Part shown: positions 1 through 46,513 of the stretch, in pieces
Layout of the letters: every line of letters begins with the position of its first letter
Position numbering within the stretch: position 1 is the first letter of the stretch
Assembly (NCBI GenBank): GCA_964422035.1
Contig: CAYQZQ010000001.1
Span: 50,528 to 114,527 of the forward strand
DNA length: 64,000 bases
Origin: an uncultured Pseudomonadales bacterium
Lineage (GTDB): Bacteria; Patescibacteriota; Microgenomatia; UBA1400; Chazhemtobacteraceae
Direction of reading: 5' to 3'
Position numbers and translations under genes: made by a program
Notes under the pieces: generated by a model
Seen by the model: only the letters and a program-made list of their open reading frames with translations
What the model was told of the DNA's origin: nothing
Database searches by the model: none

Positions 1-1593
1 GGAAAATGAGCGGCCTTTGTTGTATTTGAGATCAGCCAGCCAGTGGCGGATGATGATAACGGACCAGAGCATGGTGAGCAGCAATATAGCGACGATGAGA
101 AATTGTTTTATAGGGGAGTCTTTTTTAATCAACTGAGGAGAGAAAGAAAATTTGGAGATGAAGCGGGGGTATAAAGATAACAGGAGAGCCGGATAGAGAT
201 AGAAGAGAAGGGCAATGGGAATAACGGAGAAGCCAAAGAAGTTGGTGATTAGGATGCTGATGTAGCCTATAAGTAGAGCGGTGGGGAGAGGTTTGTCTTT
301 ATTTTTAAGAAATGTTTTGATGTAGATAACGAAAGTAGAGACAATCAGCGCCAGATAAGTGAGAGTACCAACCAGACCGGTGGTGGCAAGAAAGTTTAAG
401 TATTCATTGTGGGCCTTGTTGTAGAGAAAGTCCCATTCGGAGAGTTGGTTGTGTTCTTGAGGGCGTGTCCAGTAGTAAGAGTAGGCAAAGGTTTCAACTC
501 CGGTTCCCAGAACTGGGTTTTGTTTAAATAATTTCCAGGCACCAGTCCAGACAACACGGCGGATTTCAAAAGAGTCGGAGCCCCCGAAGCGAACTCCTTT
601 TTGTTTGGCTTCTATGAGCTGTTGGGTTTGGGGGGAGAGCTTTTCAAGTTCAAGCGGTTTTGCCTGAGTGGTGAGATTTATTATATTTAAAAGGGGCTCG
701 GCTGTGGGCCAGACAGGACCGCCAACGTTAAGGCGGTGTTGGATTTGGGCGGGACTAGGTGTCCAGGGGGTGCCAACCAGAAAAGTTACAGATAGACAGA
801 AGAGAGTGGTGAGGATAAGTGGTTTTAGTTTCTTTTTGTTTTTAAGGGAGCGGAAAAATAGAAAGAGGAAGCTTAAAGTGAGAATGATAAAAGTGGTGCC
901 GATACCAGAGCGGGATTTGGTGAAAAGAATGGTGGTGTAGTATAGGGAGGCGAGAAAGATAAATAAAAGTCGTTTTTTAGTTGATTGACTGTGAAAGGCG
1001 AGAAAAATGGGGAGAGGGAGAAGAGCTACCAGGTAAGCTGAAAGCCAGTTGGGCTGGCCTAAAGTTGAGAAAACTCTGTTTTGGACGTCTTGAATCCAGA
1101 TATGTTTGTCGATGCCAAAGTGCTCTAAAAAGCCGTAAAAAGCAACTAAGCCGGCAGAGGCCAGGATTGAGTAAAGGATGGTGGTTTCAAGATGCTTTTG
1201 GTTTTTTTGTTGGGAGAAGTGGCTGGTGAAGGTAAAGTATAAAAATAGATAGGAGATAGTGGAGATCAGGCCACCGTGAAAGCGGGAGTAGTAGCCCCAG
1301 AGTGAGGTGTGAGTATCTATCGAGAAGATGGTGGTTATAAGTTGGCCAAGAAAGAAAAGTAGTAGAGGAATGTCAAGAAAGGTGCGTTTGATTTTTAATT
1401 CACCTTGGAAGAGGGATTTGATGAGAAAGGCGCAGGTTATAAGGCCAGTTAAGAGATAGGTAAAGATCATTTTATTGAATTCAAAGACTTCGCTGGTTTT
1501 GGGCCAGAGCAGTAAAGGAACAAAAAAGAGCAAAGCAGCAAATCCGTAGGTGACAAAGCGGTCTAGAAAGTTTTGTAATTTGGTTTTTGGCAT
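1..1593 (-). CDS. O-antigen ligase/polymerase-like (Wzy_C-type) polytopic membrane protein. ATG at 1593 on the minus strand; the C-terminus runs off the window edge.
   Basis: Minus-strand reading frame open from the ATG (revcomp of cat at 1591-1593) to position 1 with no stop, so it is not in the ORF track. Translation is highly hydrophobic and multi-TM (MPKTKLQNFLDRFVTYGFAALLFFVPLL...), with a large periplasmic-type loop typical of the O-antigen ligase family. Plus-strand ORFs 668..940 and 981..1229 are antisense artefacts. Confidence 0.45.
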   Translation of the reverse strand, partial: MPKTKLQNFLDRFVTYGFAALLFFVPLLLWPKTSEVFEFNKMIFTYLLTGLITCAFLIKSLFQGELKIKRTFLDIPLLLFFLGQLITTIFSIDTHTSLWGYYSRFHGGLISTISYLFLYFTFTSHFSQQKNQKHLETTILYSILASAGLVAFYGFLEHFGIDKHIWIQDVQNRVFSTLGQPNWLSAYLVALLPLPIFLAFHSQSTKKRLLFIFLASLYYTTILFTKSRSGIGTTFIILTLSFLFLFFRSLKNKKKLKPLILTTLFCLSVTFLVGTPWTPSPAQIQHRLNVGGPVWPTAEPLLNIINLTTQAKPLELEKLSPQTQQLIEAKQKGVRFGGSDSFEIRRVVWTGAWKLFKQNPVLGTGVETFAYSYYWTRPQEHNQLSEWDFLYNKAHNEYLNFLATTGLVGTLTYLALIVSTFVIYIKTFLKNKDKPLPTALLIGYISILITNFFGFSVIPIALLFYLYPALLLSLYPRFISKFSFSPQLIKKDSPIKQFLIVAILLLTMLWSVIIIRHWLADLKYNKGRSFS

Positions 1594-1732
1594 GAGGATA
1601 TTGTAACGGATGTTTAGATTATTTGGGAAGGAGAGTTGTATATATAAAGCTGGAAAGTTGGAGATATGAGTGGGAAGGATGAATTAAAAAGAGTTTTAGA
1701 ACAACCTGTAATTCGTGTTATACTAAGCTGCG

Positions 1733-2797
1733 ATGATTGATCAATTTTGGCAAATGGTTTCATATGATATCGGCGTGGATTTGGGGACTGCCAATACTGT
1801 GGTACATGTTAAGGATAAAGGAATTGTAGTTAGAGAACCTTCGGTGGTAGCCAGACACAGGAAAACTTTGGAGATTCTGGCGATTGGAACTGAAGCTAAA
1901 CAAATGACAGGGAAGACTCCGGAGAATATTGAAGTGGTAAGACCCTTGCGAGATGGAGTGATTGCGGATTTTGATGCGGCTGAGGCAATGCTTGATTATC
2001 ACATTAGGCAAGTACATGAGTTGATGGGTGGACTTCGAGGAACTTTAAGGAAGCCTAGAGTAGTGGTGGGAATTCCCTCTGGAGTAACAGAGGTTGAGAG
2101 AAGGGCAGTGCAAGAAGCAGCTTTAAACGCGGGGGCAAGAAAGGCATTTTTAATTGAAGAGCCGATGGCGGCAGCCATTGGAGGGGGTTTACCGGTACAG
2201 AAAGCGATGGGTCAGATGGTGATTGATATTGGGGGAGGAACCAGTGAGATTGGAGTAATATCTTTGGGAGGATTGGTTTTAAATAAATCTTTGAGGATTG
2301 CCGGAGATGAGTTGACCGAGGCAGTGATTAGTTTTGCTCGGCTTAAATACAACTTGTTGATGGGTGAGTCGACGGCGGAGGCGGTGAAGATTGCAGTTGG
2401 TAGTGCGTACCCTTTGGATGAAGAGAAAAAGGCTAAGCCTTTGACTATTGTAGTTAGAGGTAGAAGTTTGGAGGATGGACTGCCTAAAAGCCAGAAGATT
2501 AACAGTGTTGAGGTAAGAGAAGCCTTGGCTCCGGTAGTGCGTCAGATTTTGCAGGAGGTGGCTTTGGTAATTGAAGAGACACCTCCGGAGCTTATTAGTG
2601 ATATTTTGGAAAGGGGAATTATGATGGCAGGTGGAGGTTCACTTTTGCGTAATATTGATAAGTTGGTAGCTGAGGAAACAGGAATGCCGGTATGGGTGAC
2701 GGACAATCCAATGGAGGCAGTGGTGAGAGGAACAGCTAAAGTATTGGAAGATGAAAAATTGTTAGGGCAGGTGAAGGTAGTTGGCGGTCTGGTCTGA
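1733..2797 (+). CDS. mreB: Rod shape-determining protein MreB (actin-like ATPase)
   Basis: DIGVDLGTANTVV phosphate-1 motif; full-length similarity pattern to MreB (IGGGTSE, MAGGGSLL). Alternative start at M8 (1754). Confidence 0.95.
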   Translation: MIDQFWQMVSYDIGVDLGTANTVVHVKDKGIVVREPSVVARHRKTLEILAIGTEAKQMTGKTPENIEVVRPLRDGVIADFDAAEAMLDYHIRQVHELMGGLRGTLRKPRVVVGIPSGVTEVERRAVQEAALNAGARKAFLIEEPMAAAIGGGLPVQKAMGQMVIDIGGGTSEIGVISLGGLVLNKSLRIAGDELTEAVISFARLKYNLLMGESTAEAVKIAVGSAYPLDEEKKAKPLTIVVRGRSLEDGLPKSQKINSVEVREALAPVVRQILQEVALVIEETPPELISDILERGIMMAGGGSLLRNIDKLVAEETGMPVWVTDNPMEAVVRGTAKVLEDEKLLGQVKVVGGLV

Positions 2798-2809
2798 TAT
2801 GATGGTTTT

Positions 2810-3403
2810 ATGAGTAAGAAAAAGGGTAAATTGTTTGACAAGATAGCTGCTATATCTAGTCGTGTTTTTGATCCGGTGATAGAGATTCCTGTATTGTTGT
2901 CGGCAGCTGTTTTGATAGCAGTGAATAATGGGATGAGGTGGAGATTTTTGGCGCTGCTTTTGTTAGTTGATGCAGTACTGCCGGCTGGTTATTTGGCTTG
3001 GGGGCTTAAAAGTGGAAAGCTGTCTGATTGGGATATAACAGATAGGAAAGAAAGAATGAGTATTTATCTGTTTGCAGTTCTGACTCATCTGTTTGGAGTT
3101 TTATTGGCTTTATTTATTGGTAAGTATGTGCTGTTTAGGATTTTGTTGGTTTGGTGGAGTATGGCGGTGGTGTTTTTTGTAGTAACTTTGTTCTGGAAGA
3201 TATCAGTTCACGCTGGTGTGAATGCGGCTTTAGTGGTATTTGTTAATCATTTTTATGGTTGGGATAGATATTGGTGGTTGATAGGAGGATTGATTTTGGT
3301 GATGTGGGCAAGAGTGAGGAGTAATAAGCACACGTGGGTGCAGGTATTGGTAGGAGCAGGACTGGCGCTGTTGTGGACAGGATTAGGGTTGCAGGTGATA
3401 TAG
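2810..3403 (+). CDS. Integral membrane protein, possibly a PAP2-like phosphatase
   Basis: 197 aa with 5-6 predicted TM segments. Weak PAP2-like motifs (SVHAG; RVRSNKHTWVQ). Lies between mreB and an inverted mreC. Confidence 0.35.
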   Translation: MSKKKGKLFDKIAAISSRVFDPVIEIPVLLSAAVLIAVNNGMRWRFLALLLLVDAVLPAGYLAWGLKSGKLSDWDITDRKERMSIYLFAVLTHLFGVLLALFIGKYVLFRILLVWWSMAVVFFVVTLFWKISVHAGVNAALVVFVNHFYGWDRYWWLIGGLILVMWARVRSNKHTWVQVLVGAGLALLWTGLGLQVI

Positions 3404-30476: not shown

Positions 30477-31787
30477 ATGAATGGAATGGTAGAAATACAT
30501 GGTGGCAAGAAATTAAAAGGAGAAGTTAAACCAATTGCTAACAAAAACTCAGTAGTGGCAGTTTTGCCGGCAGCTCTTTTGAGTAAAGAAAAAGTTGTCT
30601 ATGAAGGTATACCCCAGACTAGTGATGTAGATAAGATCTTGGCGATTATGGAGAAACTGGGAGCTAAGGTTAAAAGAGAGGGAGGTAGAGTTGAGATTAA
30701 GGCTGAGGATTTAATTAATTACAAGATTGACGAGGAGTTGGGAGGTCAGTTTAGGGCCAGTTTGATGTTTGTAGGGCCCCTTTTGGCTAGAATGGGCAAG
30801 GCAAGAATTCCTCTGCCGGGTGGTTGCGTTTTGGGGCACAGGTCAATTTCGGGACATGTGGATGTATTTAGAAAAGTGGGAGTGAAAGTTAAGCTGGAAG
30901 ATGACAGTGTCTTTTTTGAAGTACCTGAAAAGCTTGAAGAATGTTATCGCATTTGGCAGCTTGAAGCTTCGGTGACAGCCACAGAGAATTTGCTTATGTA
31001 TGCTGCGGGAATAGAAACGCAGATAGAGATAGTGGATGCGGCAGCTGAACCACATGTAGTGGAGCTACAGGAGCTTTTGCAGCGCATGGGAGCTGAGATT
31101 GAAGGATTGGGATCTAATAAACTGACTGTAAGGGGAAAAAGCGATCTTAGGGGCTCGGAGTTTACTCCCGGTCCTGACTTTGTTGACATTGCTGGTTTTA
31201 TGGTAGCTGCGGCAGTGACAGACGGGAAGATAAGGATATTGGGAGCTAATAAAGCAGGAGTAATTGATGGATTGATTGACTGGTTTGGTTTGTTTGGTGT
31301 GAAAGTTGAAAAAGATGGTGATGATATTGTTGTTGAAAGAGAAGAGAAAGGATTGCGTTATGATCTGTCGGGCAGGTATCCGATGGCAGCTGACAATTTA
31401 CCAAAGTTATATCCGCGTCCCTGGCCAGGATTTCCGGTAGATGTGATCCCAGTTATGGCCACTTTGGCTTGCAAGACAAAAGGAAGGTTGATGCTTAAGA
31501 ACTGGATGTATGAGAGCGGTTTTGATTTTGTGAGAGAACTTAACAGCTTGGGAGGAGACATTGTGATGGCTGACCCGCAAAGAATCTTGATTCACGGTCC
31601 GGTGAGCTTTACAGGTGGAGAAGTGGCACCGCCTAAGGTAATTCAGTCCACAAAAGCAGTGTTTTTGGCAGCCTTAGCTGATGAGGTGAGGACGGTGATT
31701 CATGGAGTGGATATTTTAAAGAGAAGATATCCTGACATTATCTCGGTTTATAAAGGGTTGGGAGCTGAGATTAAAAGTGAGGTTTAA
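30477..31787 (+). CDS. murA: UDP-N-acetylglucosamine 1-carboxyvinyltransferase MurA
   Basis: EPT fold; active-site loop LPGGCVLGHRSI containing the catalytic Cys; KNSVVAVLPAALL. Confidence 0.9.
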   Translation: MNGMVEIHGGKKLKGEVKPIANKNSVVAVLPAALLSKEKVVYEGIPQTSDVDKILAIMEKLGAKVKREGGRVEIKAEDLINYKIDEELGGQFRASLMFVGPLLARMGKARIPLPGGCVLGHRSISGHVDVFRKVGVKVKLEDDSVFFEVPEKLEECYRIWQLEASVTATENLLMYAAGIETQIEIVDAAAEPHVVELQELLQRMGAEIEGLGSNKLTVRGKSDLRGSEFTPGPDFVDIAGFMVAAAVTDGKIRILGANKAGVIDGLIDWFGLFGVKVEKDGDDIVVEREEKGLRYDLSGRYPMAADNLPKLYPRPWPGFPVDVIPVMATLACKTKGRLMLKNWMYESGFDFVRELNSLGGDIVMADPQRILIHGPVSFTGGEVAPPKVIQSTKAVFLAALADEVRTVIHGVDILKRRYPDIISVYKGLGAEIKSEV

Positions 31788-32503
31788 AAGCAGAGAAAGA
31801 TTAGGTTATCTTCGGTTTGTTTGACGGATTTTATGTTAAAGCCAGCTTGTTTGAGGAGTTTTTGAAGGCATGTTTTATCCAGAGCGGTGTAAAAGCGGGA
31901 GTGGTTGGTGTCTTTGTAAGGAATTTTGAGAAAGCGTAAGTTTAAGTGTTTTATCTTTAAGGGCAGGCTTTTAAGATGCTGGATAGCGAATTTTGGTCTA
32001 AGCAGTCTCCAGGTAGTTAAGATAAGTAAGCCATCTTTTTTAAGATGTTTTTTGGCTTGTTTTAAGACAAAAAGTTGTTGAGATTTTTCAGGTAAATGAT
32101 GAATGAAGGCGATGGTTAAGATTGCGTCGAACTGATCAAGGTCCTGCCAGGCTTGAGGCTTGGTTAGGTCAGCTTGAATAAAGTTGTGAGAGGGAAAAGA
32201 CTGACGGGCCTGGTTGAGCCATTTTTTGGAGAAGTCGATTCCGGTATAATTAAGCTGCTTTGGTAGGTAGTTTAGTACACGACCATGGCCACAGCCAAGA
32301 TCAAGTACTTTCTGATCAGGTTGAATTTTTTGGATGAAGGGCTTTAGACCCGGCCAAAGCCTGGGATGATAGGAGGCATGATCTGAGGCTATGTGATTGT
32401 AAGTTAGTTGTAAGTTTTTAAGTATGGACATAAAGGTTTTGTTTAGTGAAATTTTAGCAAAGTGAAGAGTTTGAGGGAAATGAATTAATAAAAAGCTTGA
32501 CAT
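31784..32503 (-). CDS. Class I SAM-dependent methyltransferase
   Basis: Motif I VLDLGCGHGRV; post-I acidic residue; motif II/III region DAILTIAFIHHL. Confidence 0.75.
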   Translation of the reverse strand: MSSFLLIHFPQTLHFAKISLNKTFMSILKNLQLTYNHIASDHASYHPRLWPGLKPFIQKIQPDQKVLDLGCGHGRVLNYLPKQLNYTGIDFSKKWLNQARQSFPSHNFIQADLTKPQAWQDLDQFDAILTIAFIHHLPEKSQQLFVLKQAKKHLKKDGLLILTTWRLLRPKFAIQHLKSLPLKIKHLNLRFLKIPYKDTNHSRFYTALDKTCLQKLLKQAGFNIKSVKQTEDNLIFLCF

Positions 32504-32525
32504 AGTATTTTAGGGGGCGTATTAT
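32497..32525 (+). promoter_or_regulatory. Sigma70-type promoter for the AbiE-1 operon (TTGACA-17-TATTAT)
   Basis: TTGACA at 32497-32502, 17-bp spacer, TATTAT at 32520-32525. The -10 box overlaps the ORF-track ATG (32524), implying the true AbiEi start is the downstream ATG at 32578. Confidence 0.5.
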
Positions 32526-33111
32526 GTACATATACGTACATAAATCGTCTTCAAATAAATTTTTAGGTAATTATCTTATGGATTACAAATCAGAGTTGTT
32601 AAAACAGGGCAGAAAGATATTTAAGACAGATGATCTGGCTTTGTTGTGGCAGATAAAGAAGAGAAACACCTTGCTGAAGACGATTTATCGCTATTTGGAG
32701 AGGGAAGTGTTGTTTAGTGTGCGAAAAGGAGTATATAGTGTGATGCCGCCAGAGGAGCTAGATCCGTTTGTGTTGGGTACGGCCTACATGAAAGGTTTTT
32801 GTTATGTCAGTTTGCAGACGGTACTAGCTAAAGAAGGGCTGATTAATCAGGTGGTGAGGCGAGTTACTTTAATAGGAGAGAGATCGTTGGAGTTTGAGGC
32901 GGGGGGAAGAGAGTATAGCTGCAGAAAAATGAAAAAGGAGTATTTGTATAACCAGATGGGGATAGAGTTTAAACATGAGTATGCTCAAGCGAGTAAGGCA
33001 AGAGCCATTGCTGATATATTGTATTATAATTCTGATTTTTACTTTGATAAGAAGTGGGGAGAAGTAGAAAACAGGGTTGAAGAAATTAGAAAGCAGGTGT
33101 TTTTAAAATGA
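32524..33111 (+). CDS. abiEi: AbiEi-family antitoxin/transcriptional regulator (type IV TA / abortive infection); true start probably ATG 32578
   Basis: AbiEi_4-like N-terminal domain pattern (GRKIFKTDDLALLW...RKGVYSV...FCYVSLQTVLAKEGLI). Immediately upstream of, and overlapping by 4 nt, an AbiEii nucleotidyltransferase gene. Confidence 0.75.
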   Translation: MYIYVHKSSSNKFLGNYLMDYKSELLKQGRKIFKTDDLALLWQIKKRNTLLKTIYRYLEREVLFSVRKGVYSVMPPEELDPFVLGTAYMKGFCYVSLQTVLAKEGLINQVVRRVTLIGERSLEFEAGGREYSCRKMKKEYLYNQMGIEFKHEYAQASKARAIADILYYNSDFYFDKKWGEVENRVEEIRKQVFLK

Positions 33112-33842
33112 TGAAAGTACCAAGACGAAACGAGATGCCTCATAAACTGGCGATGTATAGCTTGCTGCAGAAGCTTTTGGCTGATGTGGAGATTGTTTCA
33201 AGTATTTATTTTAAGGGTGGAAGTTGTGCGGCCATGCTGGGATATCTGGACCGGTTTAGTGTGGACTTGGATTTTGATTTACTGGATAAAGAGAAAAAAA
33301 GTAATTTGCGTCAAAAGATCCATCAGGTAATAGACAGTTTGGGGTATGAAGTTAAAGATGAGGCAAAAGAGCAGTTGCAGTTTTTCTTAAAGTACAGAGA
33401 TGCGGCAAATGAGCGCAACACCTTGAAGCTGGAGATTGGAGATTTGGTGTCTGAGGCTAATGAGTATAAAAAAGTGTATTTGGTGGAGATAGATAAGTAT
33501 TGTAAGGCACAGACGATCGAGACGATGTTTGCAAATAAACTGGTGGCGTTAAAGGCTCGTTATGAGGAGGGAAAGGGGATAGCAGGGAGAGATGTTTATG
33601 ATGTTGGTCATTTTTTTAAGCAAGGATATGGAATAAACAATAAAGTGGTGGAAGACTTAAGAGGGGTGAGTATGACTAAATATATAGAAGAGCTGGTTGA
33701 GTTTGTAGAAAATGAGGTGGGAGAGAAAGTACTATATCAGGATTTAAATCCTTTGTTGAGTAAAGAGAAGCTAAATCAGGCAGTACCAAGATTGAAGGAA
33801 GAAGTGTTGATTGCTTTGAGAAGCCTAATTGTGGGTAGTTGA
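33108..33842 (+). CDS. abiEii: AbiEii/AbiGii-family nucleotidyltransferase toxin (DUF1814-like)
   Basis: NTase motif KGGSCAAMLGYLDRFSVDLDFD (GS...hxRxSxDLD). Size 244 aa; operon partner of AbiEi. Confidence 0.8.
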   Translation: MMKVPRRNEMPHKLAMYSLLQKLLADVEIVSSIYFKGGSCAAMLGYLDRFSVDLDFDLLDKEKKSNLRQKIHQVIDSLGYEVKDEAKEQLQFFLKYRDAANERNTLKLEIGDLVSEANEYKKVYLVEIDKYCKAQTIETMFANKLVALKARYEEGKGIAGRDVYDVGHFFKQGYGINNKVVEDLRGVSMTKYIEELVEFVENEVGEKVLYQDLNPLLSKEKLNQAVPRLKEEVLIALRSLIVGS

Positions 33843-33854
33843 GTTGAATTATCA

Positions 33855-35423
33855 GTGGATGGTAAGTTTTTAAGTATGGACATAAAAGAATTCCTTTACC
33901 AGGATTTCAGCAAACTAAAACCAGATAATCTGGAGAGTTTTAAGCGCAGTTGGGCAGAGGATTTGGGTAAGATGCCCAAGCACAGCGATGTGTATGTGGC
34001 ATATAGAAAGCTTCTGGAAGAGGGGAAAATTGAGCCTAATATCGAGCTGGAGAGGGAGATGACAACCAGCAAGGTGCGCAGCCAGTCAGGAGTAGCTCCG
34101 ATGGCGGTGATGACCAAGGCTTTTGTTTGTCCTGGCGAGTGTATTTACTGTCCACTGGAGGCTGGATTGCCTAAAAGTTATCTACCTGATGAACCAGCAG
34201 CCCAGAGGGCCTTAAAGTATGATTTTGACCCATATAAGCAGGTTGAGTCTAGATTAGAGCAGCTTGAGAAAACGGGGCATAAGACTGACAAAGTGGAGTT
34301 GATTGTGATCGGAGGCACGTTTGGGGCGTATGCGGATGATTACAAAATTGAGTTTTTTAAGGGGATATATGAGGCTTTAAATGGCAAGAGGGCGGAGAGT
34401 TTGGAAGAAGCTAAGAAAGTTAACCAGACGGCTGATAGAAGAGCGGTGGGAATAAGTGTGGAGACAAGACCAGACTGGGTGAGTGATGAGGAAGTAAGGC
34501 TATATAGAAGGCTGGGAGTAACTAAGATTCAGCTTGGAGTGCAGGCTTTTGATGAGAAGATTCAAAAGATAATCAAAAGGGGGCACGGTATTGAGGCGGT
34601 GGCGCAGGCAACTAGGAAACTGAAGAATGCAGGTTTTAAGGTTTCTTATCATTTTATGCCTAACTTGCCGGGAAGTAACCCCAAAAAAGACGTTAAGATG
34701 GCCAAGCAGATGTTTGAAGATAAGCGATTCAAGCCTGATTACTTGAAGGTTTATCCTACTCAGGTAATTGCTGGCACGGTGCTGCACAGAATGCACCAGC
34801 AGGGTGAGTTTGAAGCTTATGATGATCAGACTTTAAAAGAAGTTTTGAAAAAAATTAAGGCAGTGACCCCTGAGTGGGTAAGAATAGATAGGTTAGTGAG
34901 AGATATTTCCAAAAAATGGGTAAAGAGTGGCACTCATAAGTCAAACATGCGCCAGATTATCAAAGACGAGTTGAAGGAGGAAAGTGGAGTGGGGTGTAGG
35001 TGTATCAGATGTCGAGAGATCAAACTACGTGAGTATACAGATAGACCCAAAATGAGTATTTTGAGGCTGGAAACTAGTGGCGGAGAGGAGTTGTTTATGA
35101 GCTTTGAAAAAGATGACAAATTGTACTCAATTTTACGTCTGCGATTGCCAAATGCTGATAAGAAGATGCTCTTTGATGAACTTGAAGGAGCGGCAATTGT
35201 ACGTGAGATTCATACCTATGGAACGGTGTTGGGGTTAAGTGAGAGAGTAAAGAAGAGGGTGCAACACAGAGGATTGGGACAGGAGTTGCTGGAAGAGGCA
35301 GAAAAACAAGCTAAAAAGGCGGGCTACAAAAGGGTAGCAGTTATCTCAGCAATTGGCACCCACCAGTATTATGAAAAATGGGGATACAGGCTTGAGGGTG
35401 AGTATATGGTTAAAGATTTGTAG
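33855..35423 (+). CDS. elp3: Elp3-family radical SAM / GNAT acetyltransferase (tRNA wobble uridine modification-type)
   Basis: Radical SAM CxxxCxxC (CPGECIYCP); Elp3 central region; C-terminal GNAT fold (QHRGLGQELLEEAEKQAKKAGYKRVAVISAIG). Confidence 0.8.
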   Translation: MDGKFLSMDIKEFLYQDFSKLKPDNLESFKRSWAEDLGKMPKHSDVYVAYRKLLEEGKIEPNIELEREMTTSKVRSQSGVAPMAVMTKAFVCPGECIYCPLEAGLPKSYLPDEPAAQRALKYDFDPYKQVESRLEQLEKTGHKTDKVELIVIGGTFGAYADDYKIEFFKGIYEALNGKRAESLEEAKKVNQTADRRAVGISVETRPDWVSDEEVRLYRRLGVTKIQLGVQAFDEKIQKIIKRGHGIEAVAQATRKLKNAGFKVSYHFMPNLPGSNPKKDVKMAKQMFEDKRFKPDYLKVYPTQVIAGTVLHRMHQQGEFEAYDDQTLKEVLKKIKAVTPEWVRIDRLVRDISKKWVKSGTHKSNMRQIIKDELKEESGVGCRCIRCREIKLREYTDRPKMSILRLETSGGEELFMSFEKDDKLYSILRLRLPNADKKMLFDELEGAAIVREIHTYGTVLGLSERVKKRVQHRGLGQELLEEAEKQAKKAGYKRVAVISAIGTHQYYEKWGYRLEGEYMVKDL

Positions 35424-35440
35424 CTGGTAAGATAGAAGCT

Positions 35441-36010
35441 ATGCAAGCAGTCTATGTTGACCAGTTAGCGGAGGGTAACAGAGAAAAAGTAGAGAAGGTT
35501 AATGGATTGATAAATGACAAGCAAGCAGCGAAGAGATTTGGAGCTAGAAACCTAAAGGAGTACAGTTATTGGGCGTGGCGAGCTTGCGGGGTGGCTAATG
35601 TGGCGATGATTTTTCAAAGTGAGAATTTGTGGGAAGGGAAGCTGATGGAGTTGGTGTTGGAGGGGTTGAAGATGAACGGCTATGCATATAAAAATATAAG
35701 GGGTGAGAAAGATGTGGGTTGGCGGCATCAGTGCTTGATGAAAATGATGGAAGAGAGAGGTTTGCAGTCTAAGAGGCGAGAGGGAGTGAAGGCAAAGGAG
35801 TTGAAAAATGAGATCGACGGTAGTTATGTAATAGCTTCTATTAAAAGTAAACCAGGTAGTCATTTGGTGCTGTTAAAAGAGTTTGTAAAAGGAACATGGA
35901 TAGTAAATGACCCTTACGGGTTTGATAGGCAGGGAGAGGATAGAAAGATAGGAGAGGAAGAGTTTAAAAAAGTGTTTTTAGGTAAAGTAATTATGGTGTC
36001 TTATGGATAA
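35441..36010 (+). CDS. Papain-fold cysteine-peptidase-like protein (C39/BtrH-like)
   Basis: Candidate catalytic Cys in WRACGVANVAMIF, His in GSHLVLL, Asp/Asn in VNDPYGFD, in the order typical of C39-like peptidases. Confidence 0.4.
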   Translation: MQAVYVDQLAEGNREKVEKVNGLINDKQAAKRFGARNLKEYSYWAWRACGVANVAMIFQSENLWEGKLMELVLEGLKMNGYAYKNIRGEKDVGWRHQCLMKMMEERGLQSKRREGVKAKELKNEIDGSYVIASIKSKPGSHLVLLKEFVKGTWIVNDPYGFDRQGEDRKIGEEEFKKVFLGKVIMVSYG

Positions 36011-37163
36011 ATTTGATTACGGTGAAAGCAATATAGTTAAAAAAGCATTTCGCAGCCTACGCTGGCAAGTTGCCAAGGCTTGGCTCAAGTTACACCCACA
36101 TGTAGATGTAATCGGGATAACTGGCAGTGTGGGTAAAACGAGTGGTAAAGAAATGATAAAAGCAGTGTTGTCAGAGGTATTTAAGATAGAAGCAACACGG
36201 GAGAACTTGGATCCTATTTTTAACATTCCACTGACAGTATTGAGGCTGCAAGACAATGAAAAGATGATTTGTGAGATGGGAGTGGATGATTTTGGCCAGA
36301 TGAGTGCGTATTTGGAGTTGGTTCAGCCAAGAATTGGGGTTGTGACTGAGCTTTCTTTGGCGCATGCAGACGAGAGTCATTTTGGTTCTTTGGATGGGTT
36401 GATAGAGGAGAAGAGTAAGTTGATTAAAGGATTGTCTGAGCATAGTTGGGCGGTTTTAAATGGAGATAGTAACAAGGTGAGGAGCTTGGCTAAGAAGACA
36501 AAGGCTTGGGTGTTGACGTATGGATTTGGGAAAGATAATGACATAGTAGTTAGTAGTTTTACGCATTTTGATAGGGGCAAAAAGGTGGGGAGTAAGTTTA
36601 AGATTAACTATGGATTGGGAGAAGAAGAGGTAGAGATAAAGCTTATGGGTAGACATAATGCTAAGCTGGCAGCGATGACTGTGGCGGTGGGAATGATTGA
36701 GGGAATGAAGATAGAAGAGATAAAAAGAGGATTGAAGAAAATTAAGCCAGTAGAGCAGAGATTGGAGCCAAAGTGGGCAGGTGAGAGATTGATTATTGAT
36801 GATACATATAATGCCAGTCCGCAAGCTTGCAAGGCAGCCATTGAGGTGTTGGCTGATCTGGATAAAAAGGGAGTATTTGTAATGGGAGATATGCTGGAGC
36901 TGGGTAAGCATAGCAAGAGAGCCCATAAACATGTAGGTGAGTATGCGGCAAAAAAGGGAGTAAGCAAGCTGGCAGTGCTGGGTGAGGAGAGCAAAAGCAC
37001 AGCTGATGGCATTATTAAAGCAGGGGGAGATAGACAGAGGGTGTTACGAGCAGAAAGCCCAGAGGAGATTGTAGAGTGGCTAAAAGAAGGGCAAGAGACG
37101 GTACTGGTGAAGGGTTCACGAGGAATGAGGATGGAGAGAGTAGTAGAAGGATTGATGGAGTAG
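36003..37163 (+). CDS. murF: UDP-MurNAc-tripeptide:D-Ala-D-Ala ligase MurF
   Basis: Mur ligase P-loop VIGITGSVGKTS; IIDDTYNASP; C-terminal domain. Short N-terminal domain. Confidence 0.8.
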   Translation: MDKFDYGESNIVKKAFRSLRWQVAKAWLKLHPHVDVIGITGSVGKTSGKEMIKAVLSEVFKIEATRENLDPIFNIPLTVLRLQDNEKMICEMGVDDFGQMSAYLELVQPRIGVVTELSLAHADESHFGSLDGLIEEKSKLIKGLSEHSWAVLNGDSNKVRSLAKKTKAWVLTYGFGKDNDIVVSSFTHFDRGKKVGSKFKINYGLGEEEVEIKLMGRHNAKLAAMTVAVGMIEGMKIEEIKRGLKKIKPVEQRLEPKWAGERLIIDDTYNASPQACKAAIEVLADLDKKGVFVMGDMLELGKHSKRAHKHVGEYAAKKGVSKLAVLGEESKSTADGIIKAGGDRQRVLRAESPEEIVEWLKEGQETVLVKGSRGMRMERVVEGLME

Positions 37164-45111: not shown

Positions 45112-45140
45112 TTGACAGAAAATGTACATTTATGTATATT
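45112..45140 (+). promoter_or_regulatory. Sigma70-type promoter (TTGACA-17-TATATT) giving a leaderless or near-leaderless abiEi-2 mRNA
   Basis: TTGACA 45112-45117, TATATT 45135-45140. Start codon at 45149 lies only about 8 nt after the -10 box. Confidence 0.5.
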
Positions 45141-45148
45141 AACTATTA

Positions 45149-45718
45149 ATGAGATTAAAAGAGTTAGAAGACAAGCTGGAGTATCCGATTTTTAGTTCAA
45201 ATCAGGTTGAAAGGATGTTTGTTGAGGAAGAGAATAATAGTATAAATATTCAGCTCTCCCGTTGGGAAAAGAGAGGGGAGCTGGTGCGGTTAAAAAGAGG
45301 GATATATAAGCTGGCGGATAGGGAAGTGGAGGAGATGGTAGTGGCGAGTGTTATGTATAGGCCTTCTTATGTAAGCTTGGAGACGGCTTTGCATTATCAG
45401 GGGGTGATACCGGAGGTGGTGAATATGATTACCAGTGTGACAACGATTACCTCAAAAGAGTTTGAAAACCAGATGGGGGTTTTTGTATACAGCAAACTTA
45501 AAAAAGAGCTTTATTTTGGTTTTAAGAAAGTGAAGGATAGTAAAAGTGGCATGTACTACCAGATAGCCGAGCCGGAGAAGGCTTTATTGGACTGGATTTA
45601 CGTGAAGGGAGTAAAAGACTTGCAGGCAAGCAGAGTAGATAGAAGTCTTTTGGAGGAGGAAAAGTTGTCCAGGTGGGCTGAAAAGTACCCGGACTGGGTG
45701 GGGGAGGTAATTGATTAA
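45149..45718 (+). CDS. abiEi: AbiEi-family antitoxin/regulator (second copy)
   Basis: RLKRGIYKL...VMYRPSYVSLETALHYQGVIPE is the AbiEi N-terminal domain signature; upstream of AbiEii-2. Confidence 0.75.
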   Translation: MRLKELEDKLEYPIFSSNQVERMFVEEENNSINIQLSRWEKRGELVRLKRGIYKLADREVEEMVVASVMYRPSYVSLETALHYQGVIPEVVNMITSVTTITSKEFENQMGVFVYSKLKKELYFGFKKVKDSKSGMYYQIAEPEKALLDWIYVKGVKDLQASRVDRSLLEEEKLSRWAEKYPDWVGEVID

Positions 45719-45730
45719 TTTAATAATAAA

Positions 45731-46513
45731 ATGAATAATTTAATAACCAACTTTGATCAGATCTTGCAGATGGCGGACGATCAGGGAGTGCCTTTAAAAA
45801 AGCGGGGTGTTTTAAGGGAGTATCTGCAAAGTAAATTTCTGGCAGAGTTTTATGGTTTGAAAAAGGCTAGCAAGATGTCGTTTGTGGGCGGGACGAGCCT
45901 GAGGTTTTTGGAAGGACTGCCTAGATTTTCAGAAGATCTGGATTTTGACAATTTGGGTTTAAGTGATGACCAGGTAGAAGAGTTGGTGGAGGAAGTGGTG
46001 GGTAGTTTTGAGGCGGAGAATATAGATTTGGAACTTAAAAAAACGATAAGGGAGCACAAGAAGTATTTTGAATTAAGGTTTCCCAAGATACTTTATCAGC
46101 TGGGGATATCCTCACATGCAAAGGAGAAGATGATGATTAAGATTGACTATGCCCGTCACTGGCGGGGGCAAAAGACCAGGTCGGTTTTGTTTTCGAAGTA
46201 CGGGTTTATTGAGCAGATAGTCAGCAATCAGTTGGATCAGATTTTGGTGCAAAAGATAGCGGCTTATGTGGGGCGTAGGCAAGTGCAGCCGAGAGATATG
46301 TATGACATAGTCTGGTTGTATGCTCGGGGAGTAAGACTCGATAGGGAGTTTATGAAGGAAAATGGAAAAACAGAGCTGATAGAAAAGGCTCGAGAAAGGT
46401 TTGAAGAAAAGGGAGTTTCTCAGGCTGACAAAAGAAGACTGAGACCCTTTTTATTCAAAGAAGGTGAGGTGGATAAGATAGAGTTGTTAGGTGAAGTTTT
46501 GTCTAAGTTGTAA
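45731..46513 (+). CDS. abiEii: AbiEii/AbiGii-family nucleotidyltransferase toxin (second copy)
   Basis: NTase motif FVGGTSLRFLEGLPRFSEDLDFD; 260 aa. Confidence 0.8.
   Translation: MNNLITNFDQILQMADDQGVPLKKRGVLREYLQSKFLAEFYGLKKASKMSFVGGTSLRFLEGLPRFSEDLDFDNLGLSDDQVEELVEEVVGSFEAENIDLELKKTIREHKKYFELRFPKILYQLGISSHAKEKMMIKIDYARHWRGQKTRSVLFSKYGFIEQIVSNQLDQILVQKIAAYVGRRQVQPRDMYDIVWLYARGVRLDREFMKENGKTELIEKARERFEEKGVSQADKRRLRPFLFKEGEVDKIELLGEVLSKL

Follow-up and report, generated by a model that had tools for sequence, protein, structure and literature searches.

Does a toxin from a family that modifies tRNA work together with a tRNA-modifying enzyme that is encoded right beside it? This question is raised by a 64,000-nucleotide stretch of DNA from an uncultured member of the Patescibacteriota (family Chazhemtobacteraceae; contig CAYQZQ010000001.1, positions 50,528 to 114,527), which we call the window and whose own numbering we use throughout. 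Here, an AbiE operon (abiEi for the antitoxin and abiEii for the toxin) is followed by elp3, which encodes an Elp3-family radical-SAM (S-adenosylmethionine) enzyme, and then by a gene for a papain-like protein with a C39-type fold. The original prediction for this DNA had placed these four genes correctly, as confirmed by profile matches and by Foldseek, and had suggested that the toxin might be linked to the tRNA modifier. We conclude instead, with a probability of about 0.8, that the AbiE cassette was inserted between elp3 and a divergent gene for a Trm9-like methyltransferase and that its place beside elp3 is accidental, not functional. With much the same confidence, we regard the stretch from 32.5 to 36 kb as three unrelated units: the elp3/trm9-like pair, the AbiE cassette, and the C39-like gene together with murF.

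An AbiE cassette at the trm9-like/elp3 junction

We compared gene neighborhoods from both sides. For Elp3 (33876-35423, plus strand), we used an alignment as the query, since a single protein had found no loci, and we kept one genome per species. This gave 80 loci from the candidate phyla radiation (CPR), which are labelled as Collier-, Woese-, Beckwith-, Peregrini-, Magasanik-, or Saccharibacteria, among others. As judged by tblastn, none of the 80 has AbiEi, AbiEii, the C39-like protein, MurF, or MurA near Elp3, and a hidden Markov model (HMM) built from 120 AbiEii sequences also found AbiEii at none of them. For AbiEii, the comparison covered 80 loci from metagenomes and 357 kb of sequence around them. 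In 75 of these loci, abiEii is directly preceded by an abiEi homologue, and not one of the 80 has Elp3, the Trm9-like protein, the C39-like protein, MurA, or MurF. Four closer AbiEii relatives (62-67% identity) are found in four unrelated contexts, each with abiEi upstream and none with Elp3 alongside. Similarly, the closest relative of this Elp3 (75% identity) has a gene for an NYN-domain protein upstream, alr, murB, murA, and ddl downstream, and no AbiE. A second AbiE pair, 12 kb downstream in the window (abiEi, 45149-45718, and abiEii, 45731-46513; PADLOC E = 4e-48 and 1.5e-43), sits far from any tRNA-modification gene. Elp3 is thus found repeatedly in relatives at loci without AbiE, which is the outcome that the original prediction had itself named as evidence against a link.

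Unsupervised clustering of the neighboring open reading frames (ORFs) identified just one conserved neighbor of Elp3. This is a class I SAM-dependent methyltransferase, which is present at 72 of the 80 loci and is always upstream of elp3 on the opposite strand. (Of the eight loci that lack it, four are on contigs that end within 210 nt of elp3.) In the window, the methyltransferase gene is on the minus strand at 31784-32431, matches the Pfam families Methyltransf_11/23/25, and has its likely start at ATG 32431 (MSILKNL); the original prediction had not listed it. In relatives, the start codons of this gene and of elp3 typically overlap or abut (-11 to 0 nt), as in ATGTCAGACAT, ATGCTCAT, or CATATG. 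Because the divergent start codons overlap, each promoter must lie inside the coding sequence of the partner gene. The junction is wider, at 0.4-4.6 kb, in 23 of the 72 loci, where it contains variable cargo that is unrelated to the pair, including an SDR, PyrH, a Band-7 protein, a lysyl-oxidase-like protein, and recurrent unknown proteins. At one locus (L019, 1272-1775), the cargo is a ParE/Phd toxin-antitoxin pair.

The AbiE cassette in the window is flanked by a 39-nt direct repeat (left copy, 32396-32434; right copy, 33848-33886; 85% identity; spacing 1452 nt). The repeat has a perfect 25-nt core, GTAAGTTTTTAAGTATGGACATAAA, which occurs exactly twice in the window, while 0 occurrences are expected by chance. 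The core contains ATGGACAT, which is the ATG of elp3 on the plus strand overlapping the ATG of the methyltransferase gene on the minus strand. The left copy has the working start codon of the trm9-like gene (on the minus strand) and a relic of the elp3 start (ATGGACAT), and the right copy has the working elp3 start and, in decayed form, a remnant of the trm9-like gene's first 12 codons. The elp3 ORF was first called as 33855-35423; ATG 33876 (MDIKEF) is most likely the true start, and it agrees with the 515-amino-acid product in NCBI.

These observations fit the following history. In the ancestor, the starts of elp3 and the trm9-like gene would have overlapped (as in ATGGACAT), and a self-contained cassette of about 1.4 kb would have inserted exactly at this junction. 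An insertion there would destroy one of the two genes unless the target were duplicated, and a duplication of 39 nt of target, which would have left both the trm9-like gene and elp3 intact, matches the repeats that we see. The gene order is not an artefact of assembly: across 11.6 kb, the sequence shows 100% identity to a Logan assembly that was made independently (L090).

The AbiE cassette and the genes downstream

The toxin, AbiEii (33108-33842, plus strand, 244 amino acids), belongs to the DUF1814 nucleotidyltransferase family. It matches PF08843 with E = 8e-16 and 59 bits (cutoff 22.5) and a PADLOC model with E = 2e-31. All four motifs that were defined for DUF1814 (hG[GS]x9-15DhD with an Arg, KLxAaxxR, and +DxxD; PMC3985639) are intact, as G37 G38, R49, D53 x D55, K144LVALKAR151, and R161DVYD165. 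Among 120 relatives, 116-120 have the same residue at each of these positions. The toxin of the second AbiE pair also has motifs I-IV intact. The antitoxin gene, abiEi, comes first and overlaps abiEii by 4 nt, which is the arrangement of an AbiE operon. The abiEi ORF was first called as 32524-33111, and ATG 32524 sits inside the -10 box of the promoter that is described below; from the sequence, we place the start at ATG 32578 (MDYKSELL), which is kept in relatives. The resulting protein (32578-33111, plus strand, 177 amino acids), a predicted autorepressor, matches 15 PADLOC models for AbiEi (best E = 6e-22) and NCBIfam TAA_AbiEi (7e-12; 45 bits, under the cutoff of 150). Antitoxins of the AbiEi (COG5340) type have a winged helix-turn-helix domain at the N terminus and an antitoxin domain at the C terminus. 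The window's protein has no match in Pfam, and searches of the PDB with its sequence and with a 7-sequence profile gave no meaningful match. An AlphaFold2 model that was built from the window's two AbiEi sequences alone has a predicted local distance difference test (pLDDT) score of 32.5, which is too low for use.

The promoter in the original prediction was also correct. TTGACA (32497-32502) and TATTAT (32520-32525), separated by 17 nt, form the best sigma-70-type match (11 of 12 positions) within 31.5-37.5 kb. Sites with at least 11 of 12 matches are about four times as frequent in the whole window as in shuffled sequence (9 versus 2.1 +/- 1.1). The promoter hexamers are kept upstream of abiEi in three related cassettes (L082, L083, and L085), and the spacer sequence varies. 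The arrangement that these three share with the window's cassette is TTGACA-17-TAT(T/A)AT, followed directly by an ATGTACA...TGTACAT palindrome. Among 64 more distant abiEi upstream regions, the strict promoter layout is found in another 10 (versus 1% of background). The second AbiE pair in the window has TTGACA-17-TATATT at 45112, with ATGTACA-type motifs within the spacer.

In the window, the palindrome (TTATGTACATA|TACGTACATAA, 32522-32543) is 91% complementary and overlaps the -10 box and the likely transcription start. Besides standing next to the -10 box in the three related cassettes, a motif of this kind (GTAYA-N2-8-TRTAC) is present in 25 of the 64 more distant upstream regions (versus 1.6% of background). 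By analogy with AbiEi from Streptococcus agalactiae (PMC3985639, PMC7319586), we view the palindrome as a putative operator for AbiEi. At the level of the sequence alone, then, this promoter has the inverted repeats of an autoregulated AbiE promoter, and the cassette looks like an ordinary, autonomous AbiE that carries its own promoter and TGTACA palindrome.

If this cassette acts like the studied systems, then AbiEi would repress its own promoter via the palindrome, as in S. agalactiae and Mycobacterium tuberculosis (PMC3985639, PMC7319586), and, by analogy with the AbiE and MenAT systems, it would also neutralize AbiEii. Free AbiEii would add nucleotides to the 3' ends of tRNAs, which would block aminoacylation and growth, and this would serve either abortive infection or addiction to the cassette. 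As the original prediction noted, relatives of AbiEii do nucleotidylate tRNA: this was demonstrated for MenT toxins and for AbiEii from S. agalactiae (bioRxiv 10.64898/2026.01.19.700257). The prediction's "type IV" is the classical label for AbiE; a 2026 preprint reports that AbiEi neutralizes the toxin by inducing its autophosphorylation and reclassifies AbiE as type VII.

In scans of viral contigs, we found just two distant relatives of AbiEii (27% identity). Because these are the only viral matches, there is no evidence from the scans that phages carry this subfamily of AbiEii. One of the contigs with a related cassette (L083, from Dojkabacteria) has two AbiE cassettes within 5 kb of each other. 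The second of these, a more distant AbiE pair, is convergent with a radical-SAM gene (the region at 779-3015). We considered this gene as another case of AbiE beside Elp3 and rejected it, as it belongs to the PA0069 / "mobile pair B" family and not to Elp3 or MnmL.

Downstream of elp3, the C39-like gene (35441-36010, plus strand) encodes a stand-alone protein of 189 amino acids that matches PF03412 just above the gathering score (E = 2.5e-5; 24.6 bits versus 22). In the PDB, Foldseek matches its AlphaFold2 model (mean pLDDT 77.6) to 6mpz, 3k8u, 5xe8, and PCAT1, at E values of between 3e-7 and 1e-5. LahT150, the peptidase domain of ComA, and PCAT1 are the top matches, at about 3e-7. The protein belongs to a small CPR family, with 44 representatives at E <= 1e-30. 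Cys49 and His141 are invariant in it, and position 157 is Asp or Asn. C39 peptidases that process bacteriocins are the N-terminal domains of ABC exporters and act on double-glycine leader peptides, but this protein and its relatives have cell-wall genes and no transporters as their neighbors, so it has a C39-like fold and lies outside of the transporter-linked family.

The original prediction had listed the C39-like protein after AbiE and Elp3. Its relatives are flanked by murA, ddl, DUF5715, murF, or murJ, in the orders murA - C39-like - DUF5715 - murF or murJ - C39-like, which argues that it belongs with the cell-wall genes and not with Elp3 or AbiE. In the window, the next gene is a murF (36003-37163, plus strand, 386 amino acids) that lacks the N-terminal domain (TIGR01143, 1.8e-89, with the match beginning at profile position 58) and overlaps the C39-like gene by 8 nt. 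Short murF genes (386-388 amino acids) recur in relatives after C39-like and DUF5715 genes (for example, at L087 7374-8534). The full gene order in this part of the window is murE, murA, trm9-like (minus strand), abiEi, abiEii, elp3, C39-like, murF, a beta-propeller gene (minus strand), and leuS. The C39-like gene and murF would thus be part of a murE-murA...murF cell-wall cluster in which the trm9-like/elp3 block is embedded.

Elp3 and its Trm9-like partner

The Elp3 protein matches TIGR01211 with E = 3e-152 and 507.6 bits (cutoff 350) over profile positions 16-522, and it has the Pfam domains Radical_SAM, Radical_SAM_C, and GNAT. It is similar to Elp3 from Dehalococcoides mccartyi (DmcElp3, 5L7J; 3e-121) and from Methanocaldococcus infernus (6IA8; 2e-113). 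The radical-SAM cysteines (C92, C96, and C99), three zinc cysteines (C381, C383, and C386) of the kind described for bacterial and archaeal Elp3 (PMC6367351), and the QHxGxG motif (Q470, H471, G473, and G475) are invariant across 26 sequences. Thus, we infer that this enzyme would make 5-carboxymethyluridine (cm5U) at the wobble position (U34) of tRNA. PADLOC also gives Elp3 a match to PDC-M51A (4e-6, residues 165-353); we judged this to be generic similarity among radical-SAM proteins and did not retain Elp3 as a defence gene.

Bacterial Elp3 has been described as rare or merely as present (PMC6367351, PMC13315578), and the original prediction called it uncommon in bacteria. This does not hold for CPR: at E <= 1e-20, Elp3 has over 5,300 database homologues, and CPR/Patescibacteria account for almost all of the closest ones.

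Among proteins of solved structure, the closest relative of the methyltransferase family is Trm9. Trm112 is the obligate activator partner of Trm9. On its own, the window's protein matches Trm9 from Yarrowia (5cm2_Z) at rank 2 with E = 1.9e-6. A profile of 18 methyltransferases that are linked to Elp3 in CPR matches the same chain with E = 7.3e-27 over residues 3-187 of 205, and the next best match (2e-19) is over 7 orders of magnitude weaker. The alignment spans the FSxTR...WP motif, the SAM-binding Asp, the HH pair, the W of "VWxLxQ", and the RxY motif. Eight residues are essential in yeast Trm9 (R29, D72, H116, W145, W168, R241, Y243, and N271; PMC4678810). The CPR family keeps equivalents of R29, D72, H115/H116, W145, R241, and Y243; the position of W168 is aromatic, and N271 is outside of the alignment. 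In archaea, Sulfolobus clusters its genes for Elp3 and Trm9, and the 5-methoxycarbonylmethyluridine (mcm5U) of Haloferax depends on Trm9-Trm112 (PMC6144793).

On the evidence of its sequence and its neighborhoods, the Trm9-like methyltransferase is the real conserved partner of Elp3. The two genes would form an ancestral head-to-head pair that is conserved across Patescibacteria. Most likely, the cm5U that Elp3 makes at U34 would then be methylated to mcm5U by the Trm9-like enzyme, which suggests that the conserved CPR pair is an mcm5U34 pathway of the archaeal/eukaryotic type. In the literature that we searched, we found no paper that ties Elp3 to CPR or that describes an Elp3/Trm9-like pair in CPR. 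Because Elp3 is far from rare in CPR and is nearly always paired with the Trm9-like methyltransferase, the pair predicts, for a major bacterial radiation, wobble chemistry of the mcm5U type that is otherwise known from eukaryotes and archaea. We consider this a more notable result than the adjacency of AbiE.

The window has an extreme strand bias. Its overall GC skew is +0.43 (29.9% G and 11.8% C), and the skew at third codon positions (GC3 skew) is +0.5 to +0.7 for plus-strand genes and -0.54 to -0.61 for minus-strand genes. In proteins that are encoded on the minus strand, G, E, D, and V are underrepresented and L, S, T, P, and Q are overrepresented. Strand bias has been published for "Ca. 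Chazhemtobacterium aquaticus" Ch65, from a sibling lineage, and for Collier- and Beckwithbacteria (PMC7143001); the skew of the window exceeds the published value for Ch65 (0.33).

Alternative readings and known systems

Could AbiEii and Elp3 share their target tRNAs after all, with the toxin telling tRNAs apart by the state of U34, for example, or with Elp3 counteracting or sensitizing them, and could the genes have been kept together for this reason? The genes stand side by side and are probably transcribed together, and both families act on tRNA (TIGR01211 for Elp3 and the literature on AbiEii and MenT). However, the two do not co-occur in the 80 Elp3 loci or in the 80 + 4 AbiEii loci, the closest relative of Elp3 lacks AbiE, the second AbiE pair is remote from tRNA-modification genes, and the flanking duplication marks a secondary insertion. 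Furthermore, the target of MenT-type toxins is the 3'-CCA acceptor end of tRNA and not the anticodon, so AbiEii and Elp3 do not share a site. Functional coupling is very unlikely, and as a conserved association it is close to refuted. Just as improbable is an ancestral AbiE at this junction that the other lineages have since lost. Although the junction is variable in relatives and the composition of the cassette is fully fitted to the strand bias of the host, this scenario needs a loss in all 72 of the sampled lineages, with overlapping starts restored in many of them; a 39-nt duplication of the start codons is expected from insertion, not from loss; and the nearest relatives of AbiEii are in unrelated contexts. 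Less improbable, but still unlikely, is that the cassette is a decaying and non-functional remnant. Toxin-antitoxin cassettes frequently decay in reduced genomes, and the NCBIfam score under the cutoff and the lack of a Pfam match for AbiEi would fit with this, but both ORFs are full length and have kept their 4-nt overlap, the four toxin motifs are intact, the promoter matches at 11 of 12 positions, and the palindrome is 91% complementary.

Several observations do count against an insertion at the junction or against the roles that we propose for the genes. There is no recombinase gene in the cassette, and the flanks of four other AbiE cassettes have only short repeats that are probably chance matches, so a 39-nt duplication is not a general signature of these cassettes. 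The cassette is slightly richer in AT (GC content of 0.40 versus 0.44), but its GC3 skew (0.66-0.70) matches the extreme strand bias of the host. We therefore do not read its GC content as evidence of a recent transfer; because of the matching skew, the insertion is not recent, and its donor is untraceable. The placement of AbiEi in its family comes from the PADLOC and NCBIfam profiles only, and the case for co-transcription comes from the short gaps and the lack of a terminator match. As for the Trm9-like protein, it has a His at the position of Arg29, with an Arg two residues later. (The window's protein reads "ASYHPRLWP", versus "FSxTRxxxWP" in relatives; the His may stem from avoidance of G on the minus strand.) Finally, in Peregrinibacteria (L053, L054, and L055), the Trm9-like protein continues at its C terminus into a fused WecG/TagA/CpsF glycosyltransferase domain (PF03808, 1.8e-50; 459-514 amino acids in total), which is odd for a tRNA enzyme.

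Insertion of the cassette may also have had consequences for its neighbors. The gaps from abiEi through to murF are -4, 33, 17, and -8 nt, and a scan of 31.5-37.5 kb found no terminator-like site on the plus strand. With gaps of at most 33 nt and no terminator-like site, co-transcription is plausible, and we infer that, since the insertion, the AbiEi-regulated promoter has probably driven transcription of elp3, of the C39-like gene, and of murF, with which the run ends. A further step, which is compatible with the insertion and goes beyond it, would be regulatory capture: the native promoter of elp3 was displaced, and wobble modification and cell-wall synthesis became tied to the state of the toxin-antitoxin system. 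We view this as possible but clearly short of an even bet. In its favor, only 33 nt separate the stop codon of abiEii from the ATG of elp3, the next genes follow after 17 nt and with an 8-nt overlap, and the plus strand has no other strong promoter match before 36.6 kb. Also, the elp3 promoter of relatives must lie in the coding region of the trm9-like gene, and the duplication placed just 28 nt of that region in front of elp3. On the other hand, scans for consensus sites are weak, and an internal promoter in abiEii or a non-consensus promoter is possible.

Overall, insertion of an ordinary AbiE beside Elp3 remains our preferred explanation; the locus is not a new system in which a tRNA toxin is linked to a tRNA modifier, and recognizing this avoids a false lead. 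It is a well-resolved case of a toxin-antitoxin cassette that inserted, with its promoter and operator, between overlapping start codons, and it illustrates how such cassettes can spread through genomes that are very compact and can bring housekeeping genes under their own transcription. A broader proposal, which we offer tentatively and rate at a little under even odds, is that Patescibacteria would decode with mcm5(s2)U34, a wobble modification of the archaeal/eukaryotic type, by means of an overlapping head-to-head gene pair, that the junction of this pair would be a recurrent landing site for mobile cargo, and that, through this insertion, a toxin-antitoxin autorepressor would control elp3 and, along with it, the murein-linked peptidase and murF.

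How do these units compare with known systems? The C39-like protein shares its fold with LahT150, the peptidase domain of ComA, and PCAT1 (TM-scores of about 0.73-0.75, normalized to the target) and has the Cys/His/Asp triad in the same order. Unlike them, it is not fused to an ABC transporter and has no double-glycine peptide genes nearby, and its conserved neighbors are murA, murF, murJ, and DUF5715. The AbiE cassette resembles AbiE from S. agalactiae and Lactococcus lactis and MenAT from M. tuberculosis in that it is a two-gene operon with overlapping genes and the antitoxin first, has a DUF1814 toxin of the Pol-beta nucleotidyltransferase type with motifs I-IV, and has inverted repeats in the promoter that are suited to autorepression by the antitoxin (PMC3985639, PMC7319586). 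It differs in that its operator would be a single TGTACA-type palindrome that abuts the -10 box, versus two 23-bp inverted repeats in S. agalactiae. AbiEii is also distant in sequence: among the solved chains of the AbiEii/MenT type, only JHP933 (4O8S, 1.6e-4) is a significant match, and in contrast to those systems, the subfamily is specific to CPR and its activity is a prediction.

Like the enzymes from D. mccartyi (5L7J) and M. infernus (6IA8), the Elp3 in the window combines radical-SAM and lysine acetyltransferase (KAT) domains and has the Fe-S and zinc cysteines and the acetyl-CoA motif. As in the archaeal enzymes, its N terminus is extended, by about 65 residues that are absent from DmcElp3, and it belongs to a large CPR clade, whereas published work calls bacterial Elp3 rare (PMC6367351). 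As for its partner, the family profile best matches Trm9 from the Trm9-Trm112 complexes of yeast and Haloferax volcanii, which is also a class I methyltransferase, and most of the catalytic and tRNA-binding residues are kept; the linkage to elp3 is shared with the Elp3-Trm9 cluster of Sulfolobus solfataricus (PMC6144793). Compared to yeast, Haloferax, and Sulfolobus, what is distinctive is the bacterial host, the head-to-head genes with overlapping starts, the His at the position of Arg29, and, in some lineages, the fusion to a WecG/TagA domain.

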